Of a DNA stretch of 64,000 nt, positions 2,845-28,700 are shown piece after piece. Location: positions 64,529 through 128,528 of the forward strand of contig CAWIQD010000009.1 of assembly GCA_963837945.1 (NCBI GenBank). The letters run 5' to 3'. The notes below the pieces were generated by a model, which was given only the letters and a program-made list of their open reading frames with translations, ran no database searches and had not been told where the DNA came from. Source of the stretch: an uncultured Acidobacteriota bacterium (lineage in GTDB: Bacteria; Acidobacteriota; Thermoanaerobaculia; Multivoradales; DATKCC01). How positions within the stretch are numbered: position 1 is the stretch's first letter; each line of letters opens with the position of its first letter. Made by a program: the position numbers and the translations under genes.

Positions 2845-3045
2845 AGGATCTCGGCCCGGAGGAACCGCTCGCTGCATGCCGAATGGATCGCCCGGCCGAG
2901 ACGGAGCTCGGCCCGGAAGAACCGCTCGCTGCATGCCGAACGGATCGCCCGGCCGAGACGGAGCTCGGCCGCTTCATCCGGGATTGCCTTCGCCGATCGT
3001 CTCAGGCCATGAAGCGGCCGAGCTCCGTCTCGGCCGGCCAGGCGG
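2845..3045. repeat. REP-like palindromic element cluster: two ~62-bp tandem units plus one inverted copy of core GGCCGAG-N6-CTCGGCC
   Basis: Direct repeat ctcggcccgga(g/a)gaaccgctcgctgcatgccgaa(t/c)ggatcgcccggccgagacggag twice. Then inverted copy atgaagcggccgagctccgtctcggccgg. The same core recurs at three other loci in the window. Confidence 0.75.
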
Positions 3046-3128
3046 CCCAACCGGCACCGAGCCCTCCCGCGGAGGCACACCCCGGGCACTCTCCGCGCTG
3101 CGACCGTCAGTCCGAGCTCCGCCAGGTC

Positions 3129-4265
3129 TCACCCTTCGAGAGCTTCCTTGACGTCCTCCTCGTCGATCAGCAGGGCGCCCTGGTTCACCGCGCGCGAGGC
3201 CGCGGGATCGAACTCGTGGTCGCGGATCACCCGCCGGAAGACCTCCTTCAGCGCTCGCGCCCCGAGCCTCGGCTGACGGGCCGCCTGGAGCGCGATCCGG
3301 CGCACCGCCGCCGGCGACAGGGCGAGCCGGATCCCCTGGCTGTCGAAGTACTCCCGCGTCTGGCGCAGGCCCGACTCCGGGCTCTCGAGAAAGATCTTGG
3401 TGAGCTCCTCGACCCCCAGGTCCTCGAGCAGCACCACGGCGTCGAAGCGGGACAGGAACTGCGGCGTCATGCCGTAGTCGAAGAGGTCCTCGTTGCGCAG
3501 CCAGTCGCGCAGCCGGAAGATCTCCTCGCGCCGGACCTTGCCGCCTTCGACCACCGTCACCGGCTGCAGGGCGCCCCGGTCGCGGCCGATGGTCACCCGG
3601 TCGTAGACCGCGTCGTACAGGCCCTCGAAGGCGCCCGCGCAGACGAAGAGCAGGCCGCTCGAGTCGAAGGTGGCGGTGCCGCCGCCCGCCCACGGCGGCA
3701 TCTCGACCTGCACCGCCTCGTTCTCGATCAGGGTGAGCAGGGCCTCCTGGGCGCGGATGCCCTCGACGTTCGGGCGCTCGCCCACGTGGGAGCGGATCTT
3801 GTCCACCTCGTCGACGAAGACGAGAGCGCGCGAGGCGCGGGCGAGAAGCTCCGCCGGCTTGCGGCGCGCCGCCTCGTCCGATCCGAGCTCCTCGCGCACC
3901 CGGTCGAGCAGCCGGTCGACGACCGCCTGCCCGGGTCGCCCCCGCCGCGCCTCCTCGGCCAGCACGTTGGCGTGCAGCCGCACGACCGTCGAGCGGGCCT
4001 CGAGCTCCGGCCGCGAGGCCAGGAGCCGCTCGACCGCGCGCATGAGCGTGGTCTTGCCGGTCCCCGAGGAGCCGATCATCAGGATGTTGCCGGTCGCGAG
4101 GCCCGCCAGGTGCTTGGCGAGCGCGATCGCCATCTCGCGGATCGCCGCCTCCTGCCCGATCACCCGAGAGCGAAGCGCCTCGGCGATCTCCGCCGGTGGA
4201 GGGGTCTTTGGACGAAGAGGGGGTCGAGGTCGTGAGCGGAAGCAAGGTGTCGGAAGCCATCCCAC
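3129..4265 (-). CDS. ClpX/HslU-family AAA+ ATPase (ClpX-like unfoldase lacking the N-terminal zinc-binding domain; IGF docking loop degenerate)
   Basis: VIGQEAAIREMAIALAKH...NILMIGSSGTGKTTLMRAVERLL (Walker A), FVDEVDKI (Walker B), LLFVCAGAF, and C-terminal GARALKEVF sensor region align with ClpX/HslU. No ClpP/HslV gene is adjacent. The region equivalent to the ClpX GIGFG loop reads TIGRDRG. Confidence 0.75.
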   Translation of the reverse strand: MGWLPTPCFRSRPRPPLRPKTPPPAEIAEALRSRVIGQEAAIREMAIALAKHLAGLATGNILMIGSSGTGKTTLMRAVERLLASRPELEARSTVVRLHANVLAEEARRGRPGQAVVDRLLDRVREELGSDEAARRKPAELLARASRALVFVDEVDKIRSHVGERPNVEGIRAQEALLTLIENEAVQVEMPPWAGGGTATFDSSGLLFVCAGAFEGLYDAVYDRVTIGRDRGALQPVTVVEGGKVRREEIFRLRDWLRNEDLFDYGMTPQFLSRFDAVVLLEDLGVEELTKIFLESPESGLRQTREYFDSQGIRLALSPAAVRRIALQAARQPRLGARALKEVFRRVIRDHEFDPAASRAVNQGALLIDEEDVKEALEG

Positions 4266-6501: not shown

Positions 6502-9358
6502 ATGCGTCTCGACACCCACCGTCTCCTCGCTCTCTCCGGCGCCCTGCTGGTCGCCAACAGCGCGTACCTCGCCGCTTCCGGCGACCCGCGGCCGCTCTAC
6601 TTCTTCAGCCTCCTGGCCCACCTCGGTCTGGGCCTGGTGGCCGCGGCGCTCTTCCTGCCCTGGTGGTGGCGGCGCCGCGGCGAGCGGCTGCTCTTCGCCT
6701 CCGGCGCCGCGCTGGTCGCCTCGGGGCTGGTGGCGGTGGCCCTGCTCGCCGTCGGCAACCGGCGGCCCACCTACTTCCTGGTGCCGGTCCACTGGGGGTT
6801 GGCGCTCGCCGGCCTGGTGGGGATCGCGGCCTGGGGGCTCGCGCGGCGCGGGGGACGGGCCTGGGACCTGGCGGCGGTGGGCCTGGCGCTCGCCGTCGTC
6901 CTGCCGGCGGCCGCCGTCGTCTACCAGCGCCGGCACCCCGACCCGAAGAGCGTGGTCGTCAACACCCCCGCGCCGGTGAGCATGGACCAGGAGGCGATGG
7001 GCGGGCCCGGCGGCCCCTACTTCCCGTCCTCGGTCTCCAACAGCCACGGCGGCCTGGTGCCGTCGTCGATCTACATGGACCCGCAGAGCTGCGGGCGCTC
7101 CGGGTGCCACCCGGACATCCTCGACCAGTGGAACAGCTCGGCGCACCACCGCGGGAGCTTCAACAACCAGTGGTACCGGAAATCCGTCGAGTACATGCAG
7201 GACGTGGTCGGCGTCCAGCCTTCGAAGTGGTGCGGCGGGTGCCACGACCCGGCGATCCTCCAGTCCGGGATGATGGACACGCCGATCGAGAAGATCGTCG
7301 ACACGCCGCAGGCGCAGGCCGGGATCACCTGCACGGCGTGCCACATGATCTCCGAGATCCACAACACGATGGGCAACGGGAACTACGAGATCACCCTCCC
7401 GCCGCTCCACGGCCTGGCGACCAACAAGAACCCCATGCTCTCCGGGCTCCACGACTTCCTGGTGCGCATGGACCCCGAGCCCCACCGCCGGACCTTCATC
7501 AAGCCGTTCTTCAGCGGGGCCGACGTCCCCAAGATGTGCTCCGCCTGTCACAAGGTGCACCTCGACGTGCCGGTCAACCACTACCGCTGGTTCCGCGGCT
7601 TCGACGAATACGACGCCTGGCAGGCGAGCGGCGTCTCCGGCTTCGGCGCCCGCTCCTTCTATTACCCGCCGAGCCCGAAGTCCTGCCCCGACTGCCACAT
7701 GCCGCGGGTCGTCTCGGACGACGCCGGCAACGTCGACGGGATGGTCCACTCGCACCGCTTCCCCGCCGCCAACACCGCCCTGCCCTTCGCCTACCACGAC
7801 CAGACCCAGCTCGATCAGGTGGTCGAGTTCCTCCAGGCGAACCAGGTGAGCGTCGACATCTTCGCCATGACCCGGGGCCGCGAGCCGGAGACCGGGAGAG
7901 AGAGCCGGGGCCTCGAGACCGAGGGGCCGGCCCTCTCCACCACCTCCACCGTCGGCGAGGAGACCGGGATCGCCGTGGGCTCGGGCCTGGGCGCCGCGCC
8001 GCGCGGCCCGGCCGAGCCGGTCTACGCCCCCCTCGACCGGATCCCCGCCACCGTGCGCCGGGGCGACTCGACGCGCATCGACGTGGTGGTGCGCACCCGC
8101 GGCGTGGGCCACGCCTTCCCCGGCGGCACCATCGACGCCGCCGACTGCTGGGTCGAGCTCAAGGCGACCGACTCGGCGGGCAAGACGGTCTTCTGGAGCG
8201 GCATGGCCGACGAGTCGGCGCCGGTCGACAAGGGCGCCCACTTCTACCGCGCCCTGCTGATCGACGAGCACGGCAACCCGATCGACAAGAGAAACGCCTG
8301 GGCGACGCGGGCCGTGATCTACGCCCAGGCGATCCCGCCCGGGGCGGCGGACACCGTCCGTTTCCGGCTGCACGTCCCGCCGGACGCCGCCGACACCATC
8401 CACCTCGAGGCGCGGCTCGACTATCGGAAGTTCTCGTACGACAACACCCGGTACGCCTACTCCGGGCTGCCGCCGGAGGGCGAGAGGGACCTGGTGACCC
8501 CGGCCTACGACGACCGGGGCCTGCGCTACGAGGTCGACCCGAGCCGGATCTCCGGCCCCACCAAGACGGTGCCCGAGCTGCCCATCGTGGTCATGGCCCA
8601 GGACACCCAGGACCTCCACGTGATCGACGCCGGGTCGCCGGTGCCCGACATGACGCACCCGGCCGAGAAGCCCGACGTCGACCGCGAGCGCTGGAACGAC
8701 TACGGCATCGGCTTCCTGCGCCAGGGGGACCTGCGCAGCGCACGCCTGGCCTTCACCCGGGTGACCGAGCTCCAGCCCGGCTACGTCGACGGCTGGGTGA
8801 ACCTCGGCCGGGTGGCGGTGGCCGAAGGCGCGCTCGACGAGGCCCGGCAGGGTGCTCGGCAAGGCGCTCGAGATCGAGCCGAAGCTGCCCCGCGCGCACT
8901 ACTTCCTCGGCCTGGTCGACAAGGAGAGGGGCGAGTACGACTCCGCGCTCGAGCACCTGCGGACCACCGCCGCCAAGTATCCCTACGACCGGGTGGTGCG
9001 CAACCAGATCGGCCGCGTCCTCTTCCTGCGCCACGACTACCGCGCGGCGGTCGACGAGCTCCAGAAGGTGCTCGACATCGACCCCGAGGACCTGATGGCG
9101 CATTACACGCTGATGCTCGCCTACCGCGGGCTGGGCGACCTCGAGAGCTCCCACCACGAGCAGGCGCTCTACGAGCGCTTCAAGGCGGACGAGCCCTCCC
9201 AGGAGCTGACCCGCGTCTACCGCGAGACCCACCCCGAGGACAACAACGAGCGCCAGGCGATCCACGAGCACGGCTCGCCGAGCCGCCAGGAGATCCGAAC
9301 CTTCCTCGCCGCGCACGGCGACCAGAAGGTGATCGGGATCACCGCTGGCGGCGGCTAG
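6502..9358 (+). CDS. membrane-anchored multihaem c-type cytochrome (>=4 CXXCH plus one CX4CH) with C-terminal TPR domain; ORF interrupted by an apparent 1-nt frameshift near 8845-8855
   Basis: N-terminal TM helices, then CGGCHDP, CTACHM, CSACHKVH, CPDCHMP haem-binding motifs. The TPR sequence continues seamlessly in another frame from 8852 (…AEGALDEARQ / VLGKALEIEPKLPRAHYFLGL…). The original frame continues only as Arg/Pro-rich text. Confidence 0.6.
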
Positions 9359-9430
9359 ACCGCCGGCCGCGGCCCCGCGTCGAAACCTCGATCCCGTCGA
9401 ATTCCAGCCGAGACCCAGCGAACGACCATC

Positions 9431-11125
9431 ATGAGCCCGAGAGCCTTCCTCGCGTCCTGCCTCCTCGTCCTCCTCGCCCTGCCGGCGGCCGCCGCCACCG
9501 GTCCGGGGCCCCGCTTCGTCGACGTCACGGCGGCGAGCGGCGTGGACTTCACCCACCAGACCGGCGGCTTCGGCAAGAAGTGGCTGCCCGAGACCATGGG
9601 CTCGGGCGTCGTCCTGCTCGACGCCAACGGCGACGGCCGCCTGGACATCCTGTTCTTGAACGGCCACAGCTTCCCCGGGCAGGCCAAGTCGCCGGGCAAG
9701 GACGCGACCCAGAAGCTGTTCCTGAACCGGGGCGGGCTCAAGTTCGAGGACGCCACGAAGAAGGCGGGGCTCGATCTCTCCGCCTACTGCCTGGGGGGCG
9801 CGGCCGGCGACGTCGACAACGACGGGGACACCGACCTCTACCTCTCCTGCCTGGGGACCGACCACCTGCTGCGCAACGACGGCGGCCACTTCACCGACGT
9901 CTCGAAGCAGGCCGGCCTCTCGCGCGTCGCCGAGTTCGGGGTCTCGGTCGCCATGCTCGACGCCGACCACGACGGCGACCTCGACATCTACGCCACCCGT
10001 TACGTCACCTGGACGCCCGACACGGACCTCTTCTGCACCCTCGACGGCGAGTCCAAGGCCTTCTGCACCCCGGAGTCCTACCCCGGCGCCTCGCCCCGCT
10101 TCTACCGCAACAAGGGCGACGGCACCTTCGAGGACGCGACCAAGCAGGCCGGCCTCTTCAAGCCGACCGCCAAGTCCCTGGGGGTCGCCGTGCTCGACCT
10201 GGACGGCGACGGCTGGGAGGACCTGGCGGTGGCCAACGACACGCAGCCCAACCTGCTCTACCGCAACCGGGGCGACGGCACCTTCGAGGAGATCGGCGTC
10301 GCCTCGGGCATGGCGTTCTCGGAGACCGGAGTCGCCCGCGGCGGCATGGGGATCGACGCCGCCGACTACGACCGGAGCGGCCGTCCCTCGCTGGTGATCG
10401 GCAACTTCGCCAACGAGATGGCCGCCCTCTACCGCAACGAGGGCAACCAGCTCTTCGTCGACGTGGCGCCGGTCTCGGAGCTCGGGCGCAAGACGCTCCT
10501 CACCCTGACCTTCAGCGCCTTCTACTTCGACTACGACCTCGACGGCTGGCTCGACCTGTTCCTGGCCAACGGCCACCTCGACCCGGACATCGAGCAGGTC
10601 CAGCCGCGCGTCCTCTACGCCCAGCCCTCGCAGCTCTTCCACAACGCCGGCAAGGGCAAGTTCGAGGCCGCTCCCGAGGCGACGGTGCACGACCTCGAGC
10701 GCCCGCGGGTGGCGCGCGGCGCGGCCTACGGCGACCTCGACGGCGACGGCGACCTCGACCTGGTGGTGACCGCCAACGGCGGCAAGGCGGCGCTCTTCGA
10801 GAACCGGGGACCGGGCCAGGGCAACTGGCTGCGCCTCGCCCTGCGGGGCACCCGGAGCGACCGGGACGGCGTCGGGGCCCGGATCGAGCTGACCGCCGGC
10901 GGCGGCACGCAGCGCTGGCTGGTGCGGACCGGCGGAAGCTACCTCTCCCAGTCCCAGGTGGCGCCGGTCTTCGGCCTGGGCGCCGCGAGCCGCGCCGACA
11001 AGGTGGTCGTCCGGTGGCCGTCGGGAACGGTCCAGACGTTGACCGACGTGCAGGCCAACCAGGTCCTCGAGGTGGTGGAGCCCGAGGCGGCGAAGCCGGC
11101 TCCCGCGGCCAAGGCGACCCGCTAG
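9431..11125 (+). CDS. CRTAC1 family protein (FG-GAP/VCBS repeats + ASPIC/UnbV domain), secreted
   Basis: Signal peptide. Repeated DxDGDGxxD FG-GAP/VCBS calcium-binding motifs. C-terminal WLRLALRGTRSDRDGVGARIELTAGGGTQRWLVRTGGSYLSQSQ is the ASPIC/UnbV signature. Confidence 0.8.
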   Translation: MSPRAFLASCLLVLLALPAAAATGPGPRFVDVTAASGVDFTHQTGGFGKKWLPETMGSGVVLLDANGDGRLDILFLNGHSFPGQAKSPGKDATQKLFLNRGGLKFEDATKKAGLDLSAYCLGGAAGDVDNDGDTDLYLSCLGTDHLLRNDGGHFTDVSKQAGLSRVAEFGVSVAMLDADHDGDLDIYATRYVTWTPDTDLFCTLDGESKAFCTPESYPGASPRFYRNKGDGTFEDATKQAGLFKPTAKSLGVAVLDLDGDGWEDLAVANDTQPNLLYRNRGDGTFEEIGVASGMAFSETGVARGGMGIDAADYDRSGRPSLVIGNFANEMAALYRNEGNQLFVDVAPVSELGRKTLLTLTFSAFYFDYDLDGWLDLFLANGHLDPDIEQVQPRVLYAQPSQLFHNAGKGKFEAAPEATVHDLERPRVARGAAYGDLDGDGDLDLVVTANGGKAALFENRGPGQGNWLRLALRGTRSDRDGVGARIELTAGGGTQRWLVRTGGSYLSQSQVAPVFGLGAASRADKVVVRWPSGTVQTLTDVQANQVLEVVEPEAAKPAPAAKATR

Positions 11126-12652: not shown

Positions 12653-13258
12653 TCAGCGCGGAGGCGGGACGGCCCGCCGGGCGCCGGGCTGGTAGAAGGT
12701 GGTCACGCCCCCCTGCTCGTGGAACCAGTAGAAGTGCTCGGGGCGGCGCCCGTCGAGCCCCGCCGGGGCGTCCTCCGCGTAGGTCCAGACCTCGACCGCC
12801 GAGCCGTCGCGCGGCGCGACCTCGTAGGAGACCTTCGCGGGCTCGCCGTAGAGCACGTAGATCGTGCCGCGGGCGGTGCGGCGGCCGAGGACGCCGCCCT
12901 CGCCGTACAGGCGATCGGCGTCGGCGGCCCGGCGCTCGAGCTCGAGGCGCACCGGGTTGCCGGGCTCGGCGGGATCGGGGTCCCGCCGGCTCCAGAAGGT
13001 CTCGATGAAGTCGCCGGCCGCGAAGTCGTCCGTGAGGTGCGAGTAGGCCTCGATCTCCGCGGGCGTCGCGATCCGGGCGACCGGGCCCACCAGCCAGCCC
13101 GCGTAGTCCGGGCCGAGCGCGGTGTTGACCAGGTCGCCGGGGCGGGCCGACGGCGCGCGGGTCGCGCCGCTGCCGCAGGCCGCGAGAGAGAGCAACGCGC
13201 CGGCGACCAGAGCGAGACCGGCGCTTCGGGAGGCCGCCCGGGAGCGCCGGTCAACCAC
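12653..13258 (-). CDS. GWxTD domain-containing lipoprotein
   Basis: Lipobox-like LSLAACGS, then YAGWLVGP...ETFWSRRDPDP region matching the GWxTD domain. Confidence 0.55.
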   Translation of the reverse strand: MVDRRSRAASRSAGLALVAGALLSLAACGSGATRAPSARPGDLVNTALGPDYAGWLVGPVARIATPAEIEAYSHLTDDFAAGDFIETFWSRRDPDPAEPGNPVRLELERRAADADRLYGEGGVLGRRTARGTIYVLYGEPAKVSYEVAPRDGSAVEVWTYAEDAPAGLDGRRPEHFYWFHEQGGVTTFYQPGARRAVPPPR

Positions 13259-13868
13259 GGCGCAGCAGGTCCAGGAACTCTTCCCGGACCTCCTTGCGGT
13301 AGAAGGTGCCGCGAATCGCCGAGGTCACGGTGACCGCCCCCGGCTTTTTGACCCCCCGCATCTCGACGCACAGGTGGCGGGCCTCGACAACCACCATCGC
13401 TCCGAGGGGGTTGAGCTGGTCCTGGAGGAAGCCGACCACCTGCTCGGTGAGCCGCTCCTGGAGCTGCGGGCGCTTGGCGTAGAACTCCACGATCCGCGCC
13501 ATCTTCGACAGGCCGATGATCCGGTCTCTCGGGATGTAGCCGATGTGGGCGTGGCCGTAGAAGGGGACCAGGTGGTGGGCGCACATGGAGTAGAAGGGGA
13601 TCTCCTTCTCGATCACCATGCCGCTGTACCCCTCCTCGTTCGGGAAGGTAGTGACGTTCGGCTCGGAGCCCTCGAGCAGGCCGTGGAACATCTCGAGGTA
13701 CATCTTCGCCACTCGCAGGTCGGTCCCCTGGAGGTTGGGATCGGCCAGGTCCAGGCCGAGGTCCTCCAGGAGGCCCCGGACGTGGCCGGCCAGGCGCAGA
13801 GCCCGCGCGCGGTTCTCCGGGTCGAGGTCGTCGAGCTCCGCGGGCGGGGTGTCGAGTTCGAGGGTCAT
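13251..13868 (-). CDS. folE: GTP cyclohydrolase I
   Basis: FYSMCAHHLVPFYGHAHIGYIP and C-terminal RHLCVEMRGV...TVTSAIRGTF are canonical FolE motifs. Confidence 0.85.
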   Translation of the reverse strand: MTLELDTPPAELDDLDPENRARALRLAGHVRGLLEDLGLDLADPNLQGTDLRVAKMYLEMFHGLLEGSEPNVTTFPNEEGYSGMVIEKEIPFYSMCAHHLVPFYGHAHIGYIPRDRIIGLSKMARIVEFYAKRPQLQERLTEQVVGFLQDQLNPLGAMVVVEARHLCVEMRGVKKPGAVTVTSAIRGTFYRKEVREEFLDLLRRG

Positions 13869-13963
13869 GGGAGCCGTAGTCTACAATGGCGCGCCGTGTC
13901 CCATCGGGTGCCCCTCGCTCCCCTCCCCGCGGCGGGCGACGATTGGTTCTACAATAGCCCGCC

Positions 13964-15193
13964 GTGTCCGCCCGGCTCCCTCCCGACGTCCTCGACCCGC
14001 GCTTCTACGACCGTCTCGGCGAGGTTCCCGAGGCGCTGTTCGACGACCACCTCTACTGGAGCGTCGAGCTGTTGGAGCGCTACGCCCGGGAGTGGGCCCT
14101 CGAGATCGCCGCCCGTTTGGGCCTGCCGGCGGCTCTCGCCACGGCTCCGGAAGGCGGCGCCACCGCCCGCGACCTGGTCGTGGAGCTCGGCCTCGTCCCG
14201 AGCTTCGCCTACCCTCTCTCCTGGGTGCTCGAGCAGCTCGCGGCGCTCGGCGAGATCGACGCCGCCGGCCGGCCCGGCGATCCGGACCGGCGGCGGTTCC
14301 GGGCCTCCGGCACGCCGCGCGCCGCCCGCCGCGAGCCGATCCGCGAGGCGGTGCTCGCCCACGGACCGGACAACGCGCCGTTCGTCGAGCTGCTGGACGC
14401 CGCGGGCGAGGCCTGGCCGCAGGTCGCGCGCGGCGAGGCGCGCGGCGAGGACCTGCTGCTGTCGCCGGGCAGGATCGGCTCGTGGGTGCGCTACTTCGCG
14501 AACGACAACCCGGTCTACGCCCTCAACAACCGCCTGGCCGCGGTCGCCGCCGCCCACCGGCTGCCGCCGGCGGGAGGGTTCCGGCTGCTCGAGGTGGGGG
14601 CCGGAGCGGGAAGCGGCAGCGTCGCGCTGCTCGAGGCGCTCGAAGCCGGCGGCCTCCTGGGCCACCTGGAGGAGTACCGGCTCACCGAGCCCGCCCCGAT
14701 GCTCCGCCGGAGGGCGACGCGGACCGTCACCGGGCGCTGGCCGACCGTGCCGCTCCAGGAAGGGGCGCTCGACATCGACCGTCCCTGGTCGCAGGAGGTC
14801 GAGCCCGAGAGCGTCGACCTGGTGTTCGGGGTCAACGTGTTCCACGTCGCGGTCGACCTGGAGCGGGCCCTCCGCGAGGCGCTCCGGACGTTGCGGCCGG
14901 GAGGCCGGCTGGTGCTCGGCGAGTGTCTGCGACCCTTCCCGGGCCAGCCGGTGGCGGCGGAGATGACCTTCTTACCCCTCGAGGGCTTCCGCGACGTCCA
15001 CCTCGATCCGGACCTCCGTCCCCATCCCGGCTTCCTCACCCCCGAGCTGTGGCTGGCGAACCTGGAGCGGGCCGGGTTCGCCGAGCTCGAGGTGGTGCCC
15101 GACGTCCGCGCGCTGCGCGAGATCTATCCGCGGGCCGCCGCCGGCGCGATCTGCGGCCGGCGGCCTCGTGCCCCCGGTACAATCACTGCATGA
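13964..15193 (+). CDS. class I SAM-dependent methyltransferase
   Basis: LLEVGAGAGSGSVALLEAL (motif I), LVFGVNVFH (motif II-like) and RPGGRLVLGE (post-II) in a ~400 aa ORF. Confidence 0.55.
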   Translation: MSARLPPDVLDPRFYDRLGEVPEALFDDHLYWSVELLERYAREWALEIAARLGLPAALATAPEGGATARDLVVELGLVPSFAYPLSWVLEQLAALGEIDAAGRPGDPDRRRFRASGTPRAARREPIREAVLAHGPDNAPFVELLDAAGEAWPQVARGEARGEDLLLSPGRIGSWVRYFANDNPVYALNNRLAAVAAAHRLPPAGGFRLLEVGAGAGSGSVALLEALEAGGLLGHLEEYRLTEPAPMLRRRATRTVTGRWPTVPLQEGALDIDRPWSQEVEPESVDLVFGVNVFHVAVDLERALREALRTLRPGGRLVLGECLRPFPGQPVAAEMTFLPLEGFRDVHLDPDLRPHPGFLTPELWLANLERAGFAELEVVPDVRALREIYPRAAAGAICGRRPRAPGTITA

Positions 15194-15230
15194 GCCTTCG
15201 GGACGCACGAGACGAAAGGAACCGACCGAC

Positions 15231-15464
15231 ATGAGCCACCACCTGAGCATCGAGTACTGCACCGCTTGAAACTACCGCCCCCGGGCCGCCGGTCTGGCGG
15301 ACTCGATCCAGCGGCGTTTCGACCTCGAGGCCGACCTCGTCAAGGGGCGGGGCGGCGTCTTCGAGGTGACCTTCGACGGCGAGACCCTGTTCTCGAAGAA
15401 GGAGACCGGACGCTTTCCGCAGCCGGACGAGGTGGAGACGGCGCTCGGCGAGAGGCTGGGTTGA
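15231..15464 (+). CDS. SelW/Rdx-family selenoprotein (CxxU motif; in-frame TGA at 15267-15269 decoded as selenocysteine)
   Basis: MSHHLSIEYCTA-U-NYRPRAAGLADSIQRRFDLEADLVKGRGGVFEVTFDGETLFSKKETGRFPQPDEVETALGERLG. The YCxxU...RA...GGVFEV..G..lfSKKetGrFP pattern is the SelW/SelT/Rdx fold. AAAGGAA sits 10 nt upstream of the ATG. A GC-rich hairpin with GGUCU loop lies 17 nt after the UGA. selB is 2.4 kb away. Confidence 0.7.
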
Positions 15465-15530
15465 TCGCATCGCCCCCGCACCCTCGATCCCTCTCCCGAA
15501 GCCTTGCTTGGCCCGAGGGATCCGCCGGCG

Positions 15531-16661
15531 TCAGGGCGTGAGCTCGAGGGCGGCGAGGAAGCGTTCCGCGACCCGCTGCCAGTCGTAGCCTTCGGCCCGG
15601 CGGCGGCCGGCCGCGCCGAAGCGGTGCCGGAGCTCGGCGTCGTCCAGCAGGCGCACCAGGGCCGCGGCCAGCGCCTCCGGATCGCGCGGCGGCACCAGGA
15701 GGCCGGCCTCGCCGTCCGGCACCAGCTCGGGCACCGCCCCGGCGGCCGCAGCCACCACCGGCAGCCCGGCGGCCATCGCCTCCAGGAAGGCGATGCCGAA
15801 CCCCTCCTGGAGGCTGGGCAGGCAGAAGAGGTCGGCCGCGAAGTACTCCCGGCGCACCTGCCGTTCGTCGGGCACCTCGCCGAGGAACCGGACCGCACCG
15901 TCGAGCCCCAGGGCCCGGGCACGGGCGACGAGCGACGGCAGCTCCGGACCGCCGCCGACGATCCGCACCCGCACCCCGGGATGGCGCCGGAAGACGGCCG
16001 GGAGAGCCGCGAGTAGCGTCGCCGTGTCCTTGCGCCGGTACTGGCGCGCCACGCTCAGGATGACCGGCCCCCCGGCTCCTACGCCGCCCGTGCCCTCGCC
16101 GGCGGCGACCTCGTCCACCGCCTCCGGCCGCCACTCGGCGAGGCGGATGCCTTCCGGGACCACGAGGAGGCGGCCGGGCTCGACCCCGTAGGCGGCCGCC
16201 GCCGCCCGGCGGCAGTACTCGCTGGTCACCACCACCCGGTCGGCACGCCGGGCGTTGCGCCCTTCCAGCCGCGCGAGGAGGCCGAGGGTGAGGCCGGGAG
16301 CTCCCCGCTCGTGGCGCCTCTCCTCGGCCGCGACGCCCTTGAGGGAGACGATCCTCGCCGGCCGCTCGCCGGCGGCGCCCGGCGGCGCCAGGAAGCAGCC
16401 GTCGAGGTCGAAACCGACCACCGCGTCGACCGGACCGAGCCGGGCGAGCGCGCCCGCCAGGCGCCGTCGCAGGCCGAGGTTGAAGGCCAGGCGCCGAGCC
16501 AGGCTGAGCGGGCGGCCTCGGTCGTTTCCGCCGGGCGCGATCCAGGTGACCCGGCACCCGAGCGCTTCGAGCCCTTGGCCCAGCCCGGAGATCGCGGCCG
16601 CGGTGCCGGTGCCCTTCTCGGGGGCGAGGGTCCAGGAGTTGAGGAAGAGGAGGTGGCTCAT
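15531..16661 (-). CDS. glycosyltransferase family 4
   Basis: GT-B fold. C-terminal CLPSLQEGFGIAFLEAMAAGLPVVAAAAGAVPELV with EX7E-like motif typical of GT4. Confidence 0.8.
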   Translation of the reverse strand: MSHLLFLNSWTLAPEKGTGTAAAISGLGQGLEALGCRVTWIAPGGNDRGRPLSLARRLAFNLGLRRRLAGALARLGPVDAVVGFDLDGCFLAPPGAAGERPARIVSLKGVAAEERRHERGAPGLTLGLLARLEGRNARRADRVVVTSEYCRRAAAAAYGVEPGRLLVVPEGIRLAEWRPEAVDEVAAGEGTGGVGAGGPVILSVARQYRRKDTATLLAALPAVFRRHPGVRVRIVGGGPELPSLVARARALGLDGAVRFLGEVPDERQVRREYFAADLFCLPSLQEGFGIAFLEAMAAGLPVVAAAAGAVPELVPDGEAGLLVPPRDPEALAAALVRLLDDAELRHRFGAAGRRRAEGYDWQRVAERFLAALELTP

Positions 16662-16671
16662 CGGCTGCCGG

Positions 16672-16850
16672 AGCCTGGACTATTCATCAGGCGCCGTAGC
16701 GAGAGGCGCAAGTGTGTGTGAGATCAGGGCGCACGTAGCGATAAGCGACGCAGGCGTACTGGACAGTACGTCGAAGAGCGAAGAGCGAGTACGCCCTGAG
16801 ATCGCGTGCAATTGCGCCTCGTAGTAGGTGGCTCGGGAATAGTCCAGGCT
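16672..16850. mobile_element. MITE-like element, ~179 bp, bounded by 14-bp perfect terminal inverted repeats AGCCTGGACTATTC / GAATAGTCCAGGCT
   Basis: TIRs at 16672-16685 and 16837-16850. Lower-GC interior with internal palindrome CGTACTG-GA-CAGTACG. No ORF. Confidence 0.4.
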
Positions 16851-17358
16851 AGCCGGCCGGCCCGACGCCGGCCCGGTACGCGCAGCTCTGCCCCGCGGTC
16901 TCCTCCACCTCGACGGTCAGGACCTCGACCGGCGTCTCGGCGAGCGCGGGAGCGATCTGGTCCCAGAGCACCCGTGCGAGGAGCTCGATCGAGACGTTCT
17001 CGAGCGGCAGAAACACCACGTCGTCGGCCGGGAAGCGGTAGGTCCTGCCGTCGAAGCTCACCTCCACGGCGCCTTCCGACGGGCGCACCTCGAGACGGCT
17101 CTCGCGGCCGGCCCGATCGGGGATGAGCGTGCGCTCGTCGAGTGCCCGGCAGGAGCTGCGGATCCGGTCCTTGACGGCCGCGACGTCCACCAGCAGGCCG
17201 ACCTCGTCCAGGCGAGGGCCGGCGAGCAGCACGCGCACCCGGTAGTTGTGCCCGTGGAGGAGCTCCGCGCGACCGCCCGGGAAGAGGGTGAAGTGGGCCG
17301 CCGAGAACTTGAAGTCCTCCTTGGCCAGCCGGATCTCGAAGCAGGGAACCTGGGCCAT
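16849..17358 (-). CDS. queD: 6-carboxy-5,6,7,8-tetrahydropterin synthase / 6-pyruvoyl-tetrahydropterin synthase family
   Basis: FSAAHFTL...HGHNYRV motif (zinc-binding His triad region) characteristic of QueD/PTPS. folE is nearby. Confidence 0.8.
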   Translation of the reverse strand: MAQVPCFEIRLAKEDFKFSAAHFTLFPGGRAELLHGHNYRVRVLLAGPRLDEVGLLVDVAAVKDRIRSSCRALDERTLIPDRAGRESRLEVRPSEGAVEVSFDGRTYRFPADDVVFLPLENVSIELLARVLWDQIAPALAETPVEVLTVEVEETAGQSCAYRAGVGPAG

Positions 17359-17417: not shown

Positions 17418-17873
17418 ATGGCCGAGACACCGCAGCAACGCATCGAGTCGGACCTCAGGACCGCGATGAAGGCCCGGCAGAGCGAGCGGGTCGGCAACCT
17501 GCGCATGCTCCTCGCCGAGCTCAAGAACGAGCGGATCCGGCGTGGCCAGGAGGTCGACGAGAGCGGCTTTCTCGCCCTGCTGCGCCGGGGGATCAAGCAG
17601 CGCCAGGAGGCGGCCGAGCAGTTCGAGAAGGGCGCCCGGCCCGAGCAGGCGGCCAAGGAGCGCCGCGAGGCCGCGGAGCTCGAGGCCTACCTGCCCGCCG
17701 CGCCGAGCGACGACGAGATCCGCTCCGCCGTCGAGGCCTTCGTCGCCGAGCACGGCCTCTCGGGCCCCGCGGCGATGGGCCAGGTGATGCCGGCCATGAT
17801 CGAGCGCTTCTCCGGCCGCGCCGACAACGCCGCCCTCAGCCGGATCGCCCGCGACGTCCTGCAGGGGCGATGA
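17418..17873 (+). CDS. GatB/YqeY domain-containing protein
   Basis: RIESDLRTAMKARQSERVGNLRMLLAELKNERI...EAAELEAYLP...HGLSGPAAMGQVMPAMIERFSGRADNAALSRIARDVL matches the YqeY family. Confidence 0.75.
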   Translation: MAETPQQRIESDLRTAMKARQSERVGNLRMLLAELKNERIRRGQEVDESGFLALLRRGIKQRQEAAEQFEKGARPEQAAKERREAAELEAYLPAAPSDDEIRSAVEAFVAEHGLSGPAAMGQVMPAMIERFSGRADNAALSRIARDVLQGR

Positions 17874-19912
17874 GCCCCGCGGCTTCCGATCGCGGGCCGG
17901 CGGCCGGGGGGGCCGGCGAGGCTCCGGACGAGACCGTCCGGCGGGTCGTGGTGGGCACGGCCGGGCACATCGACCACGGCAAGACTCGCTTGGTCCAGGC
18001 CCTGACCGGCATCGACTGCGACCGCTGGGCCGAGGAGAAGGAGCGCGGGATCACCATCGACCTCGGGTTCGCGCACCTCGAGCGCGAGCTCCCCGACGGC
18101 TCGACCCTCCAGATCGGCTTCATCGACGTCCCGGGCCACGAGCGCTTCCTGCGCAACGCGCTCGCCGGGCTGGGGGGCATCCGGGTGATGCTCCTGGTGG
18201 TGGCGGCCGACGAAGGCGTCAAGCCCCAGACCCGGGAGCACCTCGCGATCTGCTCGTTGCTCGGCATCCCGGCCGGCCTGGTCGCCCTCACCAAGGTCGA
18301 CCTGGTCGAGCCCGACCTGGTCGAGCTCGCCCGCATGGAGGTCGAGGAGCTCCTCGAGCCCACACCCTACGCCGGGGCCGAGATCCTGGCCGTGTCGAGC
18401 GTCACCGGCGAGGGGATCGAGCCGCTCGAGCGGGCGCTGGTCGAGCTCGCCGCCGCCCGGGCGCGCAGCCCCGCCGGCGATCCGGCCCTCGCCCTGCCCG
18501 CCCGCCTGCCGATCGACCGCGCCTTCCACCTCAAAGGGCTGGGCGTGGTGGTCACCGGCACGCTCACCAGCGGACGGATCGCGGTGGGCGACAGCCTGGA
18601 GATCCTGCCCGAGCCCGCCACCCTCGCCCGGGTGCGAAGCATCCAGGTCCACGGGCGGGCGAGGAGCGAGGCGTTGGCCGGCGAGCGTTCGGCGCTCCAG
18701 CTCGCCGGCGTGGCGCTCGAGGAGCTCGAGCGCGGCGAGGCAGCGGCGACGCCGGGGCGCTTCGAGGCCACCCGCCGGCTGCTGGCCGAGGTCCGGCTCC
18801 TCCCCGACGCGCCGGAGCCTCTGCGCGGCTTCACGCCCGTGCGCGTCCACCTGCTCTCGAGCGAGGTGGTGGGCAAGCTCCGCCCCCTGCCCCGGGGAGA
18901 CCGCCCGGGCGAGATCGTCCCGGGAGGCTCCGGCCTGGCGGAGGTCCGCCTGAGCGAGCCCCTGGTGGCGATCCGCGGCGACCGGCTGATCCTGCGCCGG
19001 CCGTCGCCCGAGACGACCCTGGGCGGCGGCCGGGTGCTCGATCCGCGGCCGGGCGCCCGGCGGCTGCGCGACCTGGCGGCGGCGGGCGAGGCGCTGCGCA
19101 TGGGTGAGGCCGACGACGGCGAAACGACCGCCGGCGCCCTCCTCCACTGGGCGCGGGAGGCCGGGGCCGCCGGGCTCGCCGCCGAGGAGGCCGCCCGCCG
19201 CCTGGGGGTGGAGCCGGCCGAGGTCGCCCGCCGCCTCGCCGCCCTGGCCGGCGAGCAGAAGCTCCTGGCGGTGCCGGAAGGCGCGGGGGGCGGGAGGACG
19301 CGCCGCTGGATCGCCCCGGCGGCCTACCGCGAGATCGCCGAGCGGGCGGCGAAGACCCTCGCCGCCTACTTCGAGCGCGACCGCCTGGCCCGTGGCGTGC
19401 CCAAGGCCGAGGCGGTGCGCCGGATCCTCCCCGGGCGGGCCGCCGAGCTCGCCGACGTGTACCTCGAGTGGCTGAGGGCCCAGAACGTGCTCGCGGTCGA
19501 CGGCGACCTGGTGACCCTGCCCGGGCGGCAGGCCGAGCTGACCGGCGAGGAATCGAGCCTCGCCCGGTCGGTCGTCGAGCGCTTCGCCGCCGCCGGCCTG
19601 ACCCCGGGCTCCCCCGAGGAGATCGGCCGGCAGATCGGAGCCAAGCCGCAGATCCTCGACGGCGTGGTGCGCTACCTGACCGAGCGGGGCCGGCTGGTCC
19701 GGCTGCCCGGCGGGCTCCTGGTCGCGGCCTCGGCGATCGAGAAACTCCGCGGCGACCTCGAGTCGACCGGCTGGGAGCGGTTCTCCGTGCCCCAGTTCAA
19801 GGACCACTTCGGGCTCAGCCGCAAGTGGGCGATCCCGCTCCTCGAGCACCTCGACTCGACCGGTGCCACCCGGCGCCTGGGCGACGAGCGGATGATCGTC
19901 CGCCGCCGCTGA
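17870..19912 (+). CDS. selB: selenocysteine-specific translation elongation factor SelB
   Basis: GTAGHIDHGKT (G1), DVPGHERF (G3), TKVD (G4) in an EF-Tu-like GTPase. Followed by ~330 aa of winged-helix C-terminal domains ending ...WAIPLLEHLDSTGATRR. ATG overlaps the previous stop (ATGA). Confidence 0.85.
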   Translation: MSPAASDRGPAAGGAGEAPDETVRRVVVGTAGHIDHGKTRLVQALTGIDCDRWAEEKERGITIDLGFAHLERELPDGSTLQIGFIDVPGHERFLRNALAGLGGIRVMLLVVAADEGVKPQTREHLAICSLLGIPAGLVALTKVDLVEPDLVELARMEVEELLEPTPYAGAEILAVSSVTGEGIEPLERALVELAAARARSPAGDPALALPARLPIDRAFHLKGLGVVVTGTLTSGRIAVGDSLEILPEPATLARVRSIQVHGRARSEALAGERSALQLAGVALEELERGEAAATPGRFEATRRLLAEVRLLPDAPEPLRGFTPVRVHLLSSEVVGKLRPLPRGDRPGEIVPGGSGLAEVRLSEPLVAIRGDRLILRRPSPETTLGGGRVLDPRPGARRLRDLAAAGEALRMGEADDGETTAGALLHWAREAGAAGLAAEEAARRLGVEPAEVARRLAALAGEQKLLAVPEGAGGGRTRRWIAPAAYREIAERAAKTLAAYFERDRLARGVPKAEAVRRILPGRAAELADVYLEWLRAQNVLAVDGDLVTLPGRQAELTGEESSLARSVVERFAAAGLTPGSPEEIGRQIGAKPQILDGVVRYLTERGRLVRLPGGLLVAASAIEKLRGDLESTGWERFSVPQFKDHFGLSRKWAIPLLEHLDSTGATRRLGDERMIVRRR

Positions 19913-20617: not shown

Positions 20618-21059
20618 GTGACGGGGCAGGGTAGGATTGGGGTCGACTTCGGGTTCGACCGTGAAGAAACTGCACTGGAGGCGGGGGTGAAACGAGTCGC
20701 CGTGTTGGGTGCGTCGCCCGACCACAGGAAGTTCGGCAACAAGAGCGTACGGGCGCACGCTCGAGGCGGGGTGGGAGGTCTTCCCCGTCAATCCGAAGGC
20801 CGAGGAGACGGCGGGCCTCGCGGCCTACCGGTCGCTCGCCGAGGTCCCGGTGCCGGTCGAGCGCATCACCGTCTATCTGCCGCCGCCGGTGACCATGAAG
20901 CTGCTGCCGGAGATCGCCGCCGCCGGGGCGCAGGAGGTCTGGTTCAATCCGGGCGCCGCCGACGCCGCCGTGCTCGCGCGCGCCCGAGAGCTCGGCATCC
21001 CGGCGATCGACGGGTGCAGCATCGTCGACCTCGGCCTGTCCCCATCCATGTTTCCCTGA
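20618..21059 (+). CDS. CoA-binding domain protein (YccU-like); apparent 1-nt frameshift near 20745-20755
   Basis: N-terminal KRVAVLGASPDHRKFGNKSVRA in one frame continues as YGRTLEAGWEVFPVNPKAEE...VWFNPGAADAAVLARARELGIPAIDGCSIV in the next frame. Confidence 0.55.
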
Positions 21060-21071
21060 AAGGACGTCGCG

Positions 21072-21224
21072 ATGAGCAGAAACTCACTCGGAGTGAAGAT
21101 CCTGGCCGTCTACCTGATCCTCGTGGGCATCGTCCTGCTGCTCAGCCTGGCCATTCCGTACTGGTCGATCATCCAGGGCATCCTGGCGCTGGTGGCGGGC
21201 ATCCTGCTCCTCGTCGGCCGGTAG
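21072..21224 (+). CDS. small hydrophobic membrane protein (50 aa)
   Basis: MSRNSLGVKILAVYLILVGIVLLLSLAIPYWSIIQGILALVAGILLLVGR. AAAGGA sits 8 nt upstream. Its stop overlaps the GTG of the next gene (TAGTG). Confidence 0.35.
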   Translation: MSRNSLGVKILAVYLILVGIVLLLSLAIPYWSIIQGILALVAGILLLVGR

Positions 21225-25795: not shown

Positions 25796-28700
25796 ATGGC
25801 CCTCCGCGCCGCGCTCGCTCTGCCGCTCGCCCTCGCCCTGACCCTGGCCCCGGCCCGACACGGCTCCGGCGCGCCGGCCGCCGCCGGGAAGGCGCCGGAC
25901 TGGGGACGCGCCGTCGCCCTGCAGCGCCAGGCCCTGGCGCAGCTCGAGAACGAGCAACCGGGCAAGGCGGAGGAGCTCTTCCGGGAGCTCACCCGGGTGG
26001 TGCCCGGAGATCCCATGCCGTGGGCCAACCTGGCGGTCGCGCAGCTCCGCCAGCAGCAGACCGACGACGCCCTCCGCTCGATCGCCCGCGCCATCGAGCT
26101 CGCGCCCGGAAACGGCGAGGTGCTGGCGGTGAAGGGAGCGATCCTCGACTGGACCGGCGACGGCGACGCCGCGCTCGCCGCCTACCGCCAGGCGGCCGAG
26201 CTCGATCCGCGGGACCCGCAGGTCCTCTATGCCCTGCTCCGCGAGGCGACCGCCTCGGGGGACCGGGAAGCCGGCCGCCAGGCGCTCGCCGACCTCGCCA
26301 GGGTGCGTCCCGACAACTTCGTGGTCCTTCTCGAGCGCGGCAAGGCGGCGATCCAGAGCGGCGACCGGGAGGCCGCGAGCGGCGTCTTCCTGCGCGTCCG
26401 CGACCTGGTCTGGCAGGCGCCGCCGGTGGCCGTGACCGCGCTCCAGGGGGTGTTCGACGCCCTCGAGAGCGGCGACGTCTCGAACGCCCGCATCCCCGCG
26501 GCCCGGCTCGAGAACGTCCTCAAGATCACGCCCATGTACCGCGAGAGCCTCCGGGAGCTGTCGAGCGGCATCCAGGGGGTGCCGCTCCAGCACTTCGCCG
26601 GCGAGCCGCCGACCACCTCCTTCGGCGACCCGATCGCGGTGCGCTTCACCGGCGCGCGGCTCTCGGACGTCCCGACCCGGGCCGGCGGCCTCGCCCTGGG
26701 CGACTTCGACGGCGACGGCACCCCCGACGTCGCTCGTCTCCTCGAGCGCAAGGACGGCGGCCTCGAGATCCGCGCGGTGTCCGCCAAGGCCCGGAACGAG
26801 CCGCGGGTCCTGGCCGCGTCCGGGGCGACCGGCCTCCTCGCCGCCGACCTCTGGAACGACGGCGCCCTCGACCTGGTCGCCTTCGGCCCGAAGGGCACGA
26901 CGGTGCTGGCGGGGACGGCCGGAAAGGACGGCGCCGCCGGCCTGGCACCGAGCGACCCGGCGAAGACCGGCCTGGGGAAGGCGGCGGGCAGCGCCGGCGC
27001 GGTCCTCGACTACGACATCGAAGGGGACCTCGACCTTGCCCTGGCGGGCGGCGGGGCCGACGCTCCGGTCGCGCTCTTCCGCAACCCGCTCGACGCCCCG
27101 CTCGAGGACGTCTCCTCCAAGGTCTTCCCGAAGCTCCACTTCCCGGGCGCCCGGGCGCTGGTCGCGAGCGATCTCGACCGCGACGGCGACGTCGACCTGC
27201 TGGCCGGCGGCACGGCCGGCCTGCTCTGGCTCGACAACCTGCGCCAGGGCCGCTTCGTCGACCGCACCGCGGCGGGCGGCCTCGCCGGGGCTTTGCCGGT
27301 CGAGGCGCTGGTCTCGGCCGACCTCGACGGCGACGGCCGGCCGGACGTGGTGGCCGCCGGCCGGGGCGTCGCCCTGTGGCGCCACGCCGGCGACCGGTTC
27401 GAGCGCTGGAACGCTCCCGGCCTGCCCGGAGCCGATGCCGGCAGCTTCACCGCCGCGGTCGCCTTCGACGCGGACAACGACGGCCGCCTCGACCTCGCCC
27501 TGGCCGGCCCGGGCGGCGTCCGCGTCCTCGGCCAGGACGGCAGGGGCGGTTTCCGCACGCTCGCGGTCTCGGGAGGGCCGCCCTCCGCGGCGGCGATCGA
27601 CGCCCTCGACGCCGACGGCGACGGCGACCTCGACCTGGTGGTGGCCGGCCCCGCCGGGCTCCACCTGCTGACCAACGAGGGCGGCAACCGAAACCACTGG
27701 CTCGCGGTGCGGCTGGCGGGGCTCACCCAGGGCAACGGCAAGAACAACGTCCGGGGCGTGGGCGCGACGGTCGAGGTCGAGACCGGCACCGCCTACCAGT
27801 TCCGCGAGCACGATGGGCGGGTGAGCCACTTCGGCATCGGCCGCCTCACCGCCGCCGACGTCCTGCGCGTAGTCTGGAACAACGGTGTGCCCCAGGACCG
27901 GCTCGACGTCGCGGGCAACCAGACGATCACCGAGGAGCAGGTGCTCAAGGGCAGCTGCCCGTTCCTCTATACCTGGAACGGCCGCCGCATCGCCTTCGTG
28001 ACCGACCTGCTCTGGAACGCTCCGGCGGGCCTGCCCGCGGCGCCTGGAGCGTGGATCCCCGCCGACCCCGAGGAGCTGGTGCGGGTCGAGGGCGCCCGGC
28101 CGCTGCCGGGCCGGCCGGGCGTCTACGACCTGCGCATCACCGAGGAGCTCTGGGAGGCGGCCTACTTCGACCTCGCCCGCCTGTGGGTGGTCGACCACCC
28201 GCCCGGAGTCGCGGTCGCCTCGAACCTGCGGGTGGTCCCTGGCGGCGGGCCCCGGCCCGAGCGCGTGCTCGGCACCCGCGACGTGCGGCCGATCGCGGCC
28301 GCCTGGGACGGCGAGGGCCGGGACGTGACCGCCCGGGTGCGCTCGCGCGACTCGGTCTACGCCGACGGCTACCGCCCGAGCGCCTACCAGGGCCTCGCCG
28401 CGGCCCCCTGGAGCCTCACCTTCGATCTCGGCGAGGCGCCGGCGGCGCCGGTGCGCCTGCTGCTCGACGGGTGGATCTTCCCGACCGACGCCAGCATCAA
28501 CATCGCCCTTGCCCAGCGCCACGACCTCGCGCTCGAAGCGCCGAAGCTCGAGGTCGAGACCGCCGCCGGCTGGCGCGTGCTCATGCCCGCCATGGGGCAC
28601 CCCGCCGGCAAGACCAAGACGATGGTGGTCGACACCCCGCCGCTGCCGCCGGGCGCCCACCGGCTCCGGATCACCACCTCGATGTGGATCTCCTGGGACC

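Follow-up and report, generated by a model that had tools for sequence, protein, structure and literature searches.

Bacterial SelW-like selenoproteins with a CxxU redox motif comprise an abundant and long-known family (PMC1088965, PMC1794560, PMC2398784, PMC13188914). Members of this family have been described since 2004-2008 (PMC1088965, PMC2398784), have been catalogued in Geobacter, Desulfotalea, Alkaliphilus and Symbiobacterium (PMC1088965, PMC1794560, PMC2398784) and are also listed in a 2026 review, where the family is graded as 'predicted with high confidence' (PMC13188914). As to function, only an interaction with glutathione and a presumed redox function have been given (PMC1088965). 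Curated models for the family, TIGR02174 and NF041051, are already included in the NCBI annotation library. The model of the bacterial SECIS (bSECIS) describes a hairpin with a stem of 4-16 bp and a loop of 3-9 nt that has a G in its first two positions, usually followed by G or U, with a spacing of 16-37 nt between the UGA and the loop and an MFE of -7.5 kcal/mol or below (PMC13188914).

Here, a locus of this type is analyzed in an uncultured lineage of Acidobacteriota. The window, that is, the whole stretch of DNA that was analyzed, is 64 kb long and has a GC content of 72%. At a probability of about 0.93, it contains a real SelW-like selenoprotein gene in which the UGA at 15267-15269 is read as selenocysteine (Sec13) via a SECIS located within the open reading frame (ORF) and SelB. 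The gene at 15231-15464 is an ordinary, previously unannotated member of a known family, and all that is mildly new is the lineage of the host and the clean support that covariation lends to the SECIS of the family.

The open reading frame and its protein family

The features of the gene are as follows.

15216-15220, + strand: Shine-Dalgarno-like motif AAGGA, 10 nt 5' of ATG 15231, read from the sequence, with a putative function
15231-15464, + strand: SelW-like (Rdx family) selenoprotein gene, 77 codons including Sec13, plus the TGA stop; identified by Pfam and NCBIfam scores, a GC3 of 0.90 and the ortholog in locus L001
15258-15260, + strand: Cys10 codon TGC, the predicted resolving Cys of the CxxU motif, aligned with the first Cys of CTQC in 3DEX and 2FA8
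15267-15269, + strand: in-frame UGA, the predicted Sec13 codon, aligned with the second Cys of CxxC in PDB homologs; TGA in the orthologs
15462-15464, + strand: terminal UGA stop of the SelW-like gene, without a downstream SECIS, by sequence reading

The initial annotation had noted an ORF of 77 codons that contains TGA in frame at 15267-15269, and the sequence reads exactly so: the translation of 15231-15464 is MSHHLSIEYCTA, the in-frame stop, NYRPRAAGLADSIQRRFDLEADLVKGRGGVFEVTFDGETLFSKKETGRFPQPDEVETALGERLG and the terminal stop. Twelve sense codons (M S H H L S I E Y C T A) precede the first TGA and 64 follow it, and the redox motif, C10-T-A-U13, is located just past the strand-like segment LSIEY. 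The + frame ORF shows GC1/2/3 values of 0.65/0.46/0.90, a coding signature in DNA with 72% GC; the antisense ORF 15183-15470 that overlaps the gene has a GC3 of 0.65 and lacks such a signature. The upstream methyltransferase gene (13964-15193) ends 37 nt before the SelW-like gene, and a consensus scan of 13800-15700 for promoters and terminators gave no match; the SelW-like gene may have its own promoter or may be co-transcribed with the methyltransferase gene.

Family assignment relied on profile searches in which the 77-residue product was queried with U13 written as C. Three curated profiles matched above their cut-offs, namely Pfam Rdx PF10262 (74 bits vs a cut-off of 22.6), TIGR02174 CXXU_selWTH (61.9 bits vs 34.2) and the equivalog NF041051, 'SelT/SelW/SelH family (seleno)protein' (93.2 bits vs 88), and the matches cover residues 5-70/72, that is, both sides of the UGA. 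A search of PDB sequences retrieved 3DEX, 2FA8, 2OJL, 2OKA, 2OBK and 2P0G with E values of 1e-11 to 2e-5, as well as human MIEN1 (2LJK, C17orf37; E = 2e-7). In the two PDB alignments that were printed (3DEX and 2FA8, both CTQC), CxxC is aligned to C10..U13. Judged by these profile matches, the product is a SelW-like (Rdx family) protein, as had been proposed along with the CxxU motif, and homology to the solved structures suggests a thioredoxin-like fold.

To collect orthologs, one genome per species (GTDB) was scanned, which yielded at least 530 relatives, and the best 80 loci were kept. These 80 of at least 530 include representatives of Acidobacteriota/Thermoanaerobaculia, Fibrobacterota, Planctomycetota, Gemmatimonadota, Krumholzibacteriia, Myxococcota, Bacillota and others. 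The closest locus, L001, belongs to an uncultured Acidobacteriota metagenome-assembled genome (MAG) and encodes an ortholog that is 84% identical to the window protein; the neighboring genes are syntenic with those of the window and 68-92% identical to them, and this relationship assigns the window to Acidobacteriota. As to whether the orthologs carry Cys or TGA, all of the best 80 loci (of at least 530) have TGA at the homologous codon, and all 80 keep the Cys three codons 5' of it, so that the TGA at 15267-15269 is, by its conservation in 80 of 80 loci, not a product of chance.

This conservation bears directly on whether the TGA could have arisen through faulty sequencing or assembly, or through a mutation that inactivated a Cys codon in what is really a CxxC Rdx gene or a pseudogene. 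Cys-form homologs are known (P0004 with CGTCNY, and the CxxC homologs in PDB), and a single base change converts TGC or TGT to TGA. However, TGA occupies the same codon in 80 independent loci out of 80 (best 80 of at least 530), and for this reason the sequencing-error and pseudogene readings are considered excluded, with a residual probability close to nil. They are further contradicted by the covarying SECIS at a constant offset, by the presence of selB and by the coding signature and profile match, which run on beyond the TGA.

The homologous TGA is rendered as W in some public gene calls, which would agree with a reassignment of UGA to Trp or Gly (genetic code 4 or 25) and a residue other than Sec at this position. 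These W calls are gene-caller artefacts, as the DNA of one of the loci concerned, L082, has TGA there. In the window, TGA is the stop of 21 of the 30 well-supported genes, including the SelW-like gene and the gene just upstream, and a dedicated selB is present; moreover, the genome is acidobacterial with 72% GC, unlike the known code-4 and code-25 lineages. The organism thus uses the standard genetic code, the normal use of TGA as a stop in 21 of 30 window genes excluding reassignment, which retains a practically negligible probability. The UGA at 15267-15269 is most plausibly a Sec codon.

Genes of this kind often escape automatic annotation. Past TGA 15267, the first in-frame ATG, GTG or TTG is a GTG at about 15366, and the ~30 codons that remain are not enough for a standard gene caller. 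The expectation that gene callers miss or shorten such genes was borne out in the databases: the best match of the window protein in the protein database reaches only 56% identity because gene callers miss the gene, and the L001 ortholog, at 84% identity, has no entry in a database of 5.8 billion protein sequences. Among the public predictions P0001-P0030, many have 'W' at the Sec position, the TGA having been translated as Trp (confirmed on the L082 DNA), and others are cut to 54-60 aa and start past the UGA.

A variant of the motif was observed in marine Verrucomicrobiales, where the SelW-like genes of L081, L082 and L083 (about 2945-3165, + strand) have TGA at both redox positions, giving U-G-M-U. 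The gene starts with ATG GAA ATA TCT ATT CTC TAT TGA GGA ATG TGA AAC TAC, and its hairpin, GCCGUC AGUUU GGCGG, keeps the normal offset relative to the second UGA and is about 30 nt away from the first. One TARA assembly and two NCBI MAGs, three independent assemblies in all, share an identical sequence, and 146 indexed blocks of the sequence collection contain its truncated product, P0027. From its sequence, this motif could potentially form a diselenide. The 2026 review lists SELENOW-like proteins only as CxxU with one Sec (PMC13188914), and a full-text literature search for UxxU together with SelW found no description.

The hairpin downstream of the UGA

Two nested structures were delineated 3' of the UGA.

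15286-15300, + strand: core predicted SECIS hairpin CCGCC-GGUCU-GGCGG, with a 5-bp stem (CCGCC/GGCGG) and the apical loop GGUCU at 15291-15295, identified by covariation and RNAalifold
15282-15305, + strand: extended hairpin of 9 bp with a bulged A at 15301, found in the fold of this window's sequence alone (-13.8 kcal/mol)

The first base of the core hairpin, 15286, is the 17th nucleotide past the UGA, and the hairpin lies inside the coding sequence, over codons of the conserved peptide A-A-G-L-A. The lower 4 bp of the extended hairpin are seen only in the fold of this window's own sequence. The hairpin is present in the predicted fold of the region past the UGA, but its energy is not exceptional: the 64-nt fold has z = -0.72 relative to shuffled sequences, and a hairpin that passes simple bSECIS criteria follows 18% of the random TGA sites of the 72% GC window. 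Folding energy was accordingly dropped as evidence for a SECIS, and covariation was used instead.

Covariation was assessed in an ungapped alignment of 81 sequences comprising 57 nt from the UGA, so that the offset of the hairpin from the UGA is identical throughout. The helix formed by columns 20-24 and 30-34 is paired in nearly all of the 81 sequences, with 90.3% of the cells paired, compared to 19-62% in a control in which the partners were slid. Double-sided changes were found at four of the six tested pairs, in 26 cells of this 81-sequence alignment. The covariation score is 0.212 vs 0.062 +/- 0.010 in shuffled alignments, none of 500 shuffles reaching 0.212, and sliding the partners by 1-3 columns gives 0.02-0.07. 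An independent prediction with RNAalifold yields the same helix, its alternative being a 6-bp stem with a 3-nt loop; the pair adjoining the core, columns 19-35, is paired in 41 of 79 sequences and unpaired in this window.

The codons that encode A-A-G/S-L-A offer another explanation, namely that the hairpin is a by-product of the conserved peptide and the high GC content, and that Sec insertion, if any, uses a different signal. The stem does overlie conserved Ala and Leu codons, the folding energy is as unremarkable as noted above, and comparable structures follow 18% of the random TGA sites in the window. However, the main covarying pair, columns 21-33 (CG in 59 sequences, GC in 13, UA in 5 and UG in 1), connects two Ala codons at their third positions, and its changes are therefore synonymous, with the swaps GCC...GCG, GCG...GCC and GCU...GCA; a second synonymous swap, GCG/CUC, occurs in L080. 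Conversely, pairing is kept despite amino acid changes in L064 (CCUUC/GAAGG), L057 (CGCUC/GAGCG) and L021 (CUUCC/GGGAG). The entropy of third positions collapses to 0.19-0.33 bits within the stem and loop vs about 1.5-1.9 bits in the flanking codons. In the loop, G25-G26-U27-C28-U29, G26 is invariant and U27 is at least 90% conserved among the 81 sequences, even though they belong to a Gly/Ser codon. A peptide-driven origin of the hairpin is thus very unlikely.

A SECIS remains the favored interpretation, and the features of the hairpin fall within the bSECIS model throughout. The loop has 5 nt and starts with GG, the conserved stem has 5 bp (9 bp with the bulged A in this window), 21 nt (15270-15290) separate the UGA from the loop, the core has an MFE of -8.2 kcal/mol and the extended hairpin one of -13.8 kcal/mol, and the covariation across the 81 sequences indicates evolutionary maintenance. 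The conservation and covariation of the hairpin among the aligned orthologs are far beyond chance, and on these grounds 15286-15300 is a conserved predicted bacterial SECIS, so that the initial suggestion of CCGCC-GGUCU-GGCGG as a possible SECIS was strengthened, with 0 of 500 shuffles matching its covariation.

selB and the gene neighborhood

The genes around the SelW-like gene that are relevant to Sec decoding, and those that are conserved with it, are as follows.

13251-13868, - strand: GTP cyclohydrolase I, which together with the PTPS-like gene (16849-17358) still brackets the SelW-like gene in the window
15531-16661, - strand: GT4 glycosyltransferase, between the SelW-like gene and selB
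16849-17358, - strand: PTPS-like gene, between the SelW-like gene and selB
17418-17873, + strand: YqeY-like gene (Pfam PF09424, 132.9 bits), not part of the Sec system
17870-19912, + strand: selB, Sec-specific elongation factor, in a separate transcription unit (TIGR00475, 349.8 bits vs a cut-off of 242.25)

The assignment of selB to 17870-19912 was upheld by the agreement between TIGR00475 and Pfam, which detects the domains GTP_EFTU, GTP_EFTU_D2, Beta-barrel_SelB, SelB-wing_2 and SelB-wing_3; judged by this domain content, the gene is genuine and intact, including the winged-helix domains. The stop codon of the YqeY-like gene overlaps the start of selB (ATGA), and the two genes are adjacent in L001, too. 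In the 64-kb window, no selA, selD or tRNA-Sec was found with ARAGORN, Rfam at the gathering threshold or Pfam on 36 of the window ORFs, the Rfam scan giving zero matches in total. ARAGORN reported a 91-nt tRNA-Leu(GAG) at 48677-48767 (- strand), inside the long ORF 47594-49525 (- strand) with a coding-like GC3; no tRNA match is obtained there by Rfam at the gathering threshold (window) or at E <= 1 (48400-49000), and GC-rich sequence has probably produced a false positive here.

The distance between the SelW-like gene and selB is 2.4 kb in the window and likewise in L001, the closest relative. Linkage was examined by comparing the proteins encoded by the window neighbors, using tblastn, with the 80 loci (best 80 of at least 530), of which 52 have at least 4.7 kb of flank downstream, 60 upstream and 68 on one side or the other. 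selB was found near the SelW-like gene in 1 of these 80 loci, and in 1 of the 68 with enough flank, in both cases L001, and linkage to selB was rejected as a conserved feature. The 2.4-kb spacing in the window and L001 would fit a functional Sec 'island', with co-regulation or a cis-preference of SelB for the nearby mRNA. Apart from the scarcity of selB in the fetched flanks (1 of 80 loci, 1 of 68 with at least 4.7 kb), this explanation is contradicted by the two intervening genes on the opposite strand (15531-16661 and 16849-17358), by the coupling of selB to the YqeY-like gene upstream of it and by the lack of selA, selD and selC nearby in the 64-kb window, and it appears highly improbable. 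Because the proximity recurs, among the 68 loci with enough flank, only in L001 and two opposite-strand genes intervene, it is a lineage-specific coincidence without evident functional weight. Thus, of the initial description of the linkage as uncommon and worth noting, the first part stands (1 of 68 loci), whereas the second does not, the arrangement being an accident of one lineage.

A different association is characteristic of the Thermoanaerobaculia/Acidobacteriota clade, in which the SelW-like gene is habitually flanked by genes for GTP cyclohydrolase I and a 6-pyruvoyl-tetrahydropterin synthase (PTPS)/QueD-like protein (L003-L020, L024, L037). Among the best 80 of at least 530 loci, GTP cyclohydrolase I is divergent and immediately upstream of the SelW-like gene in 12, and the PTPS/QueD-like gene is nearby in 16; the latter switches side and strand and remains within about 3 kb. 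In the window and L001, the methyltransferase (13964-15193) and GT4 glycosyltransferase (15531-16661) genes are inserted between the SelW-like gene and the pterin genes. The association is absent from the other phyla among these best 80 of at least 530 loci. A dedicated redox role of the selenoprotein of this clade in the metabolism of pterins or 7-deazaguanine (the queuosine precursor) can be imagined but is doubtful; if true, it would be the first physiological context for the SelW-like family.

A scan of the window for in-frame stops with a coding signal on both sides, aimed at a second selenoprotein, produced one TGA candidate, which turned out to be an ordinary stop.

20691-21059, + strand: gene ending in TGA 21057-21059, a CoA-binding protein by the look of its sequence
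21072-21224, + strand: small hydrophobic membrane protein of 50 aa, opening at ATG 21072 after the Shine-Dalgarno motif AAGGA

The TGA at 21057-21059 was rejected as a Sec codon: GC3 is high on both sides, but the TGA is a gene end that is followed by AAGGA and ATG 21072. The long ORF 20618-21802 matches DUF5698/DUF2179 in its C-terminal part only, and its true start is therefore probably much later. Two further pairs were discarded as recoded genes: 3-1175/1176-1466 are adjacent genes, with TAG as the stop at 1173-1175, and in 8801-9358/9359-11125 Pfam identifies two separate proteins, at 8852-9358 and 9431-11125. The latter two represent one of two occurrences of a TPR + FG-GAP + UnbV/ASPIC architecture in the window (+ strand in both cases). 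At 8852-11125, this architecture is distributed over two adjacent genes in the same frame, separated by a stop and 72 nt, and at 25796-29236 it forms a single protein of 1146 aa; the two copies may be paralogs, or the pair at 8852-11125 may be a split gene.

Decoding, significance and comparison with known systems

Directly supported by the analysis are the family membership of the gene product, the conservation of the UGA, the constraint on the hairpin at the RNA level, the presence of selB and the standard use of UGA as a stop. By analogy with the established bacterial Sec pathway, the hairpin at 15286-15300 would act as a SECIS during translation, its apical loop GGUCU, 21 nt 3' of the UGA, serving as the binding site for the winged-helix domains at the C-terminus of SelB. 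The complex of SelB, GTP and Sec-tRNA(Sec) would be positioned on the loop as the ribosome reaches the UGA and would deliver Sec-tRNA(Sec) to the A site, so that the UGA at 15267-15269 would be read as selenocysteine rather than as a stop, and the second UGA, at 15462-15464, which lacks a SECIS, would cause termination. The product is most likely a small thiol/selenol oxidoreductase that cycles via a Cys10-Sec13 selenenylsulfide. Sec insertion, SelB binding and this redox chemistry are all predictions.

The practical value of the finding lies in annotation, the gene being invisible to standard callers. The gene points to this acidobacterial genome as a probable user of Sec and extends its predicted selenoproteome by one member. 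Current views on how Sec is decoded and on the SelW family are unchanged, as the family, CxxU and the in-ORF SECIS have been known for about two decades, and the alignment of 81 SECIS sequences, with its clean covariation at synonymous sites, is useful as an illustration but is not a discovery.

Compared to the described bacterial SelW-like selenoproteins (PF10262, TIGR02174, NF041051; PMC1088965, PMC1794560, PMC2398784, PMC13188914), the predicted protein shows no substantive difference other than its host, an uncultured lineage of Acidobacteriota: it shares with them a length of ~75 aa, CxxU near the N-terminus, a UGA codon for the putative Sec and a SECIS hairpin immediately 3' inside the coding region. 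The Cys-type bacterial Rdx/SelW-like proteins of known structure (3DEX SAV_2001, 2FA8 Atu0228, 2OBK, 2P0G, 2OJL and 2OKA) are homologous to it over residues 2-75, with E values down to 1e-11, but have Cys in place of Sec, are ~25-30 residues longer and need neither a SECIS nor recoding. Mammalian SELENOW and the related Rdx proteins (SELENOT, SELENOH and Rdx12/MIEN1; 2LJK) belong to the same Pfam family and share the CxxU/CxxC motif; in eukaryotes, the SECIS is located in the 3' UTR, contains a kink-turn quartet and is served by SBP2/eEFSec (PMC13188914), whereas here it is predicted to be within the ORF and to be read by SelB. Among the SECIS elements, the closest comparison is with that of Escherichia coli fdhF, the sequence of which was verified in 5,419 E. 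coli genomes. Both are intra-ORF stem-loops that directly follow the Sec UGA, with an identical apical GGUCUG, and the G and U of the fdhF loop are those conserved among the SelW-like orthologs. They differ in the spacing between the UGA and the loop, which is 18 nt in fdhF and 21 nt here (counted from the sequences), in the conserved stem, which here has only 5 bp and overlies a different peptide, and in the bulged base, an A in the 3' arm of the present hairpin, as seen in the fold of this sequence.
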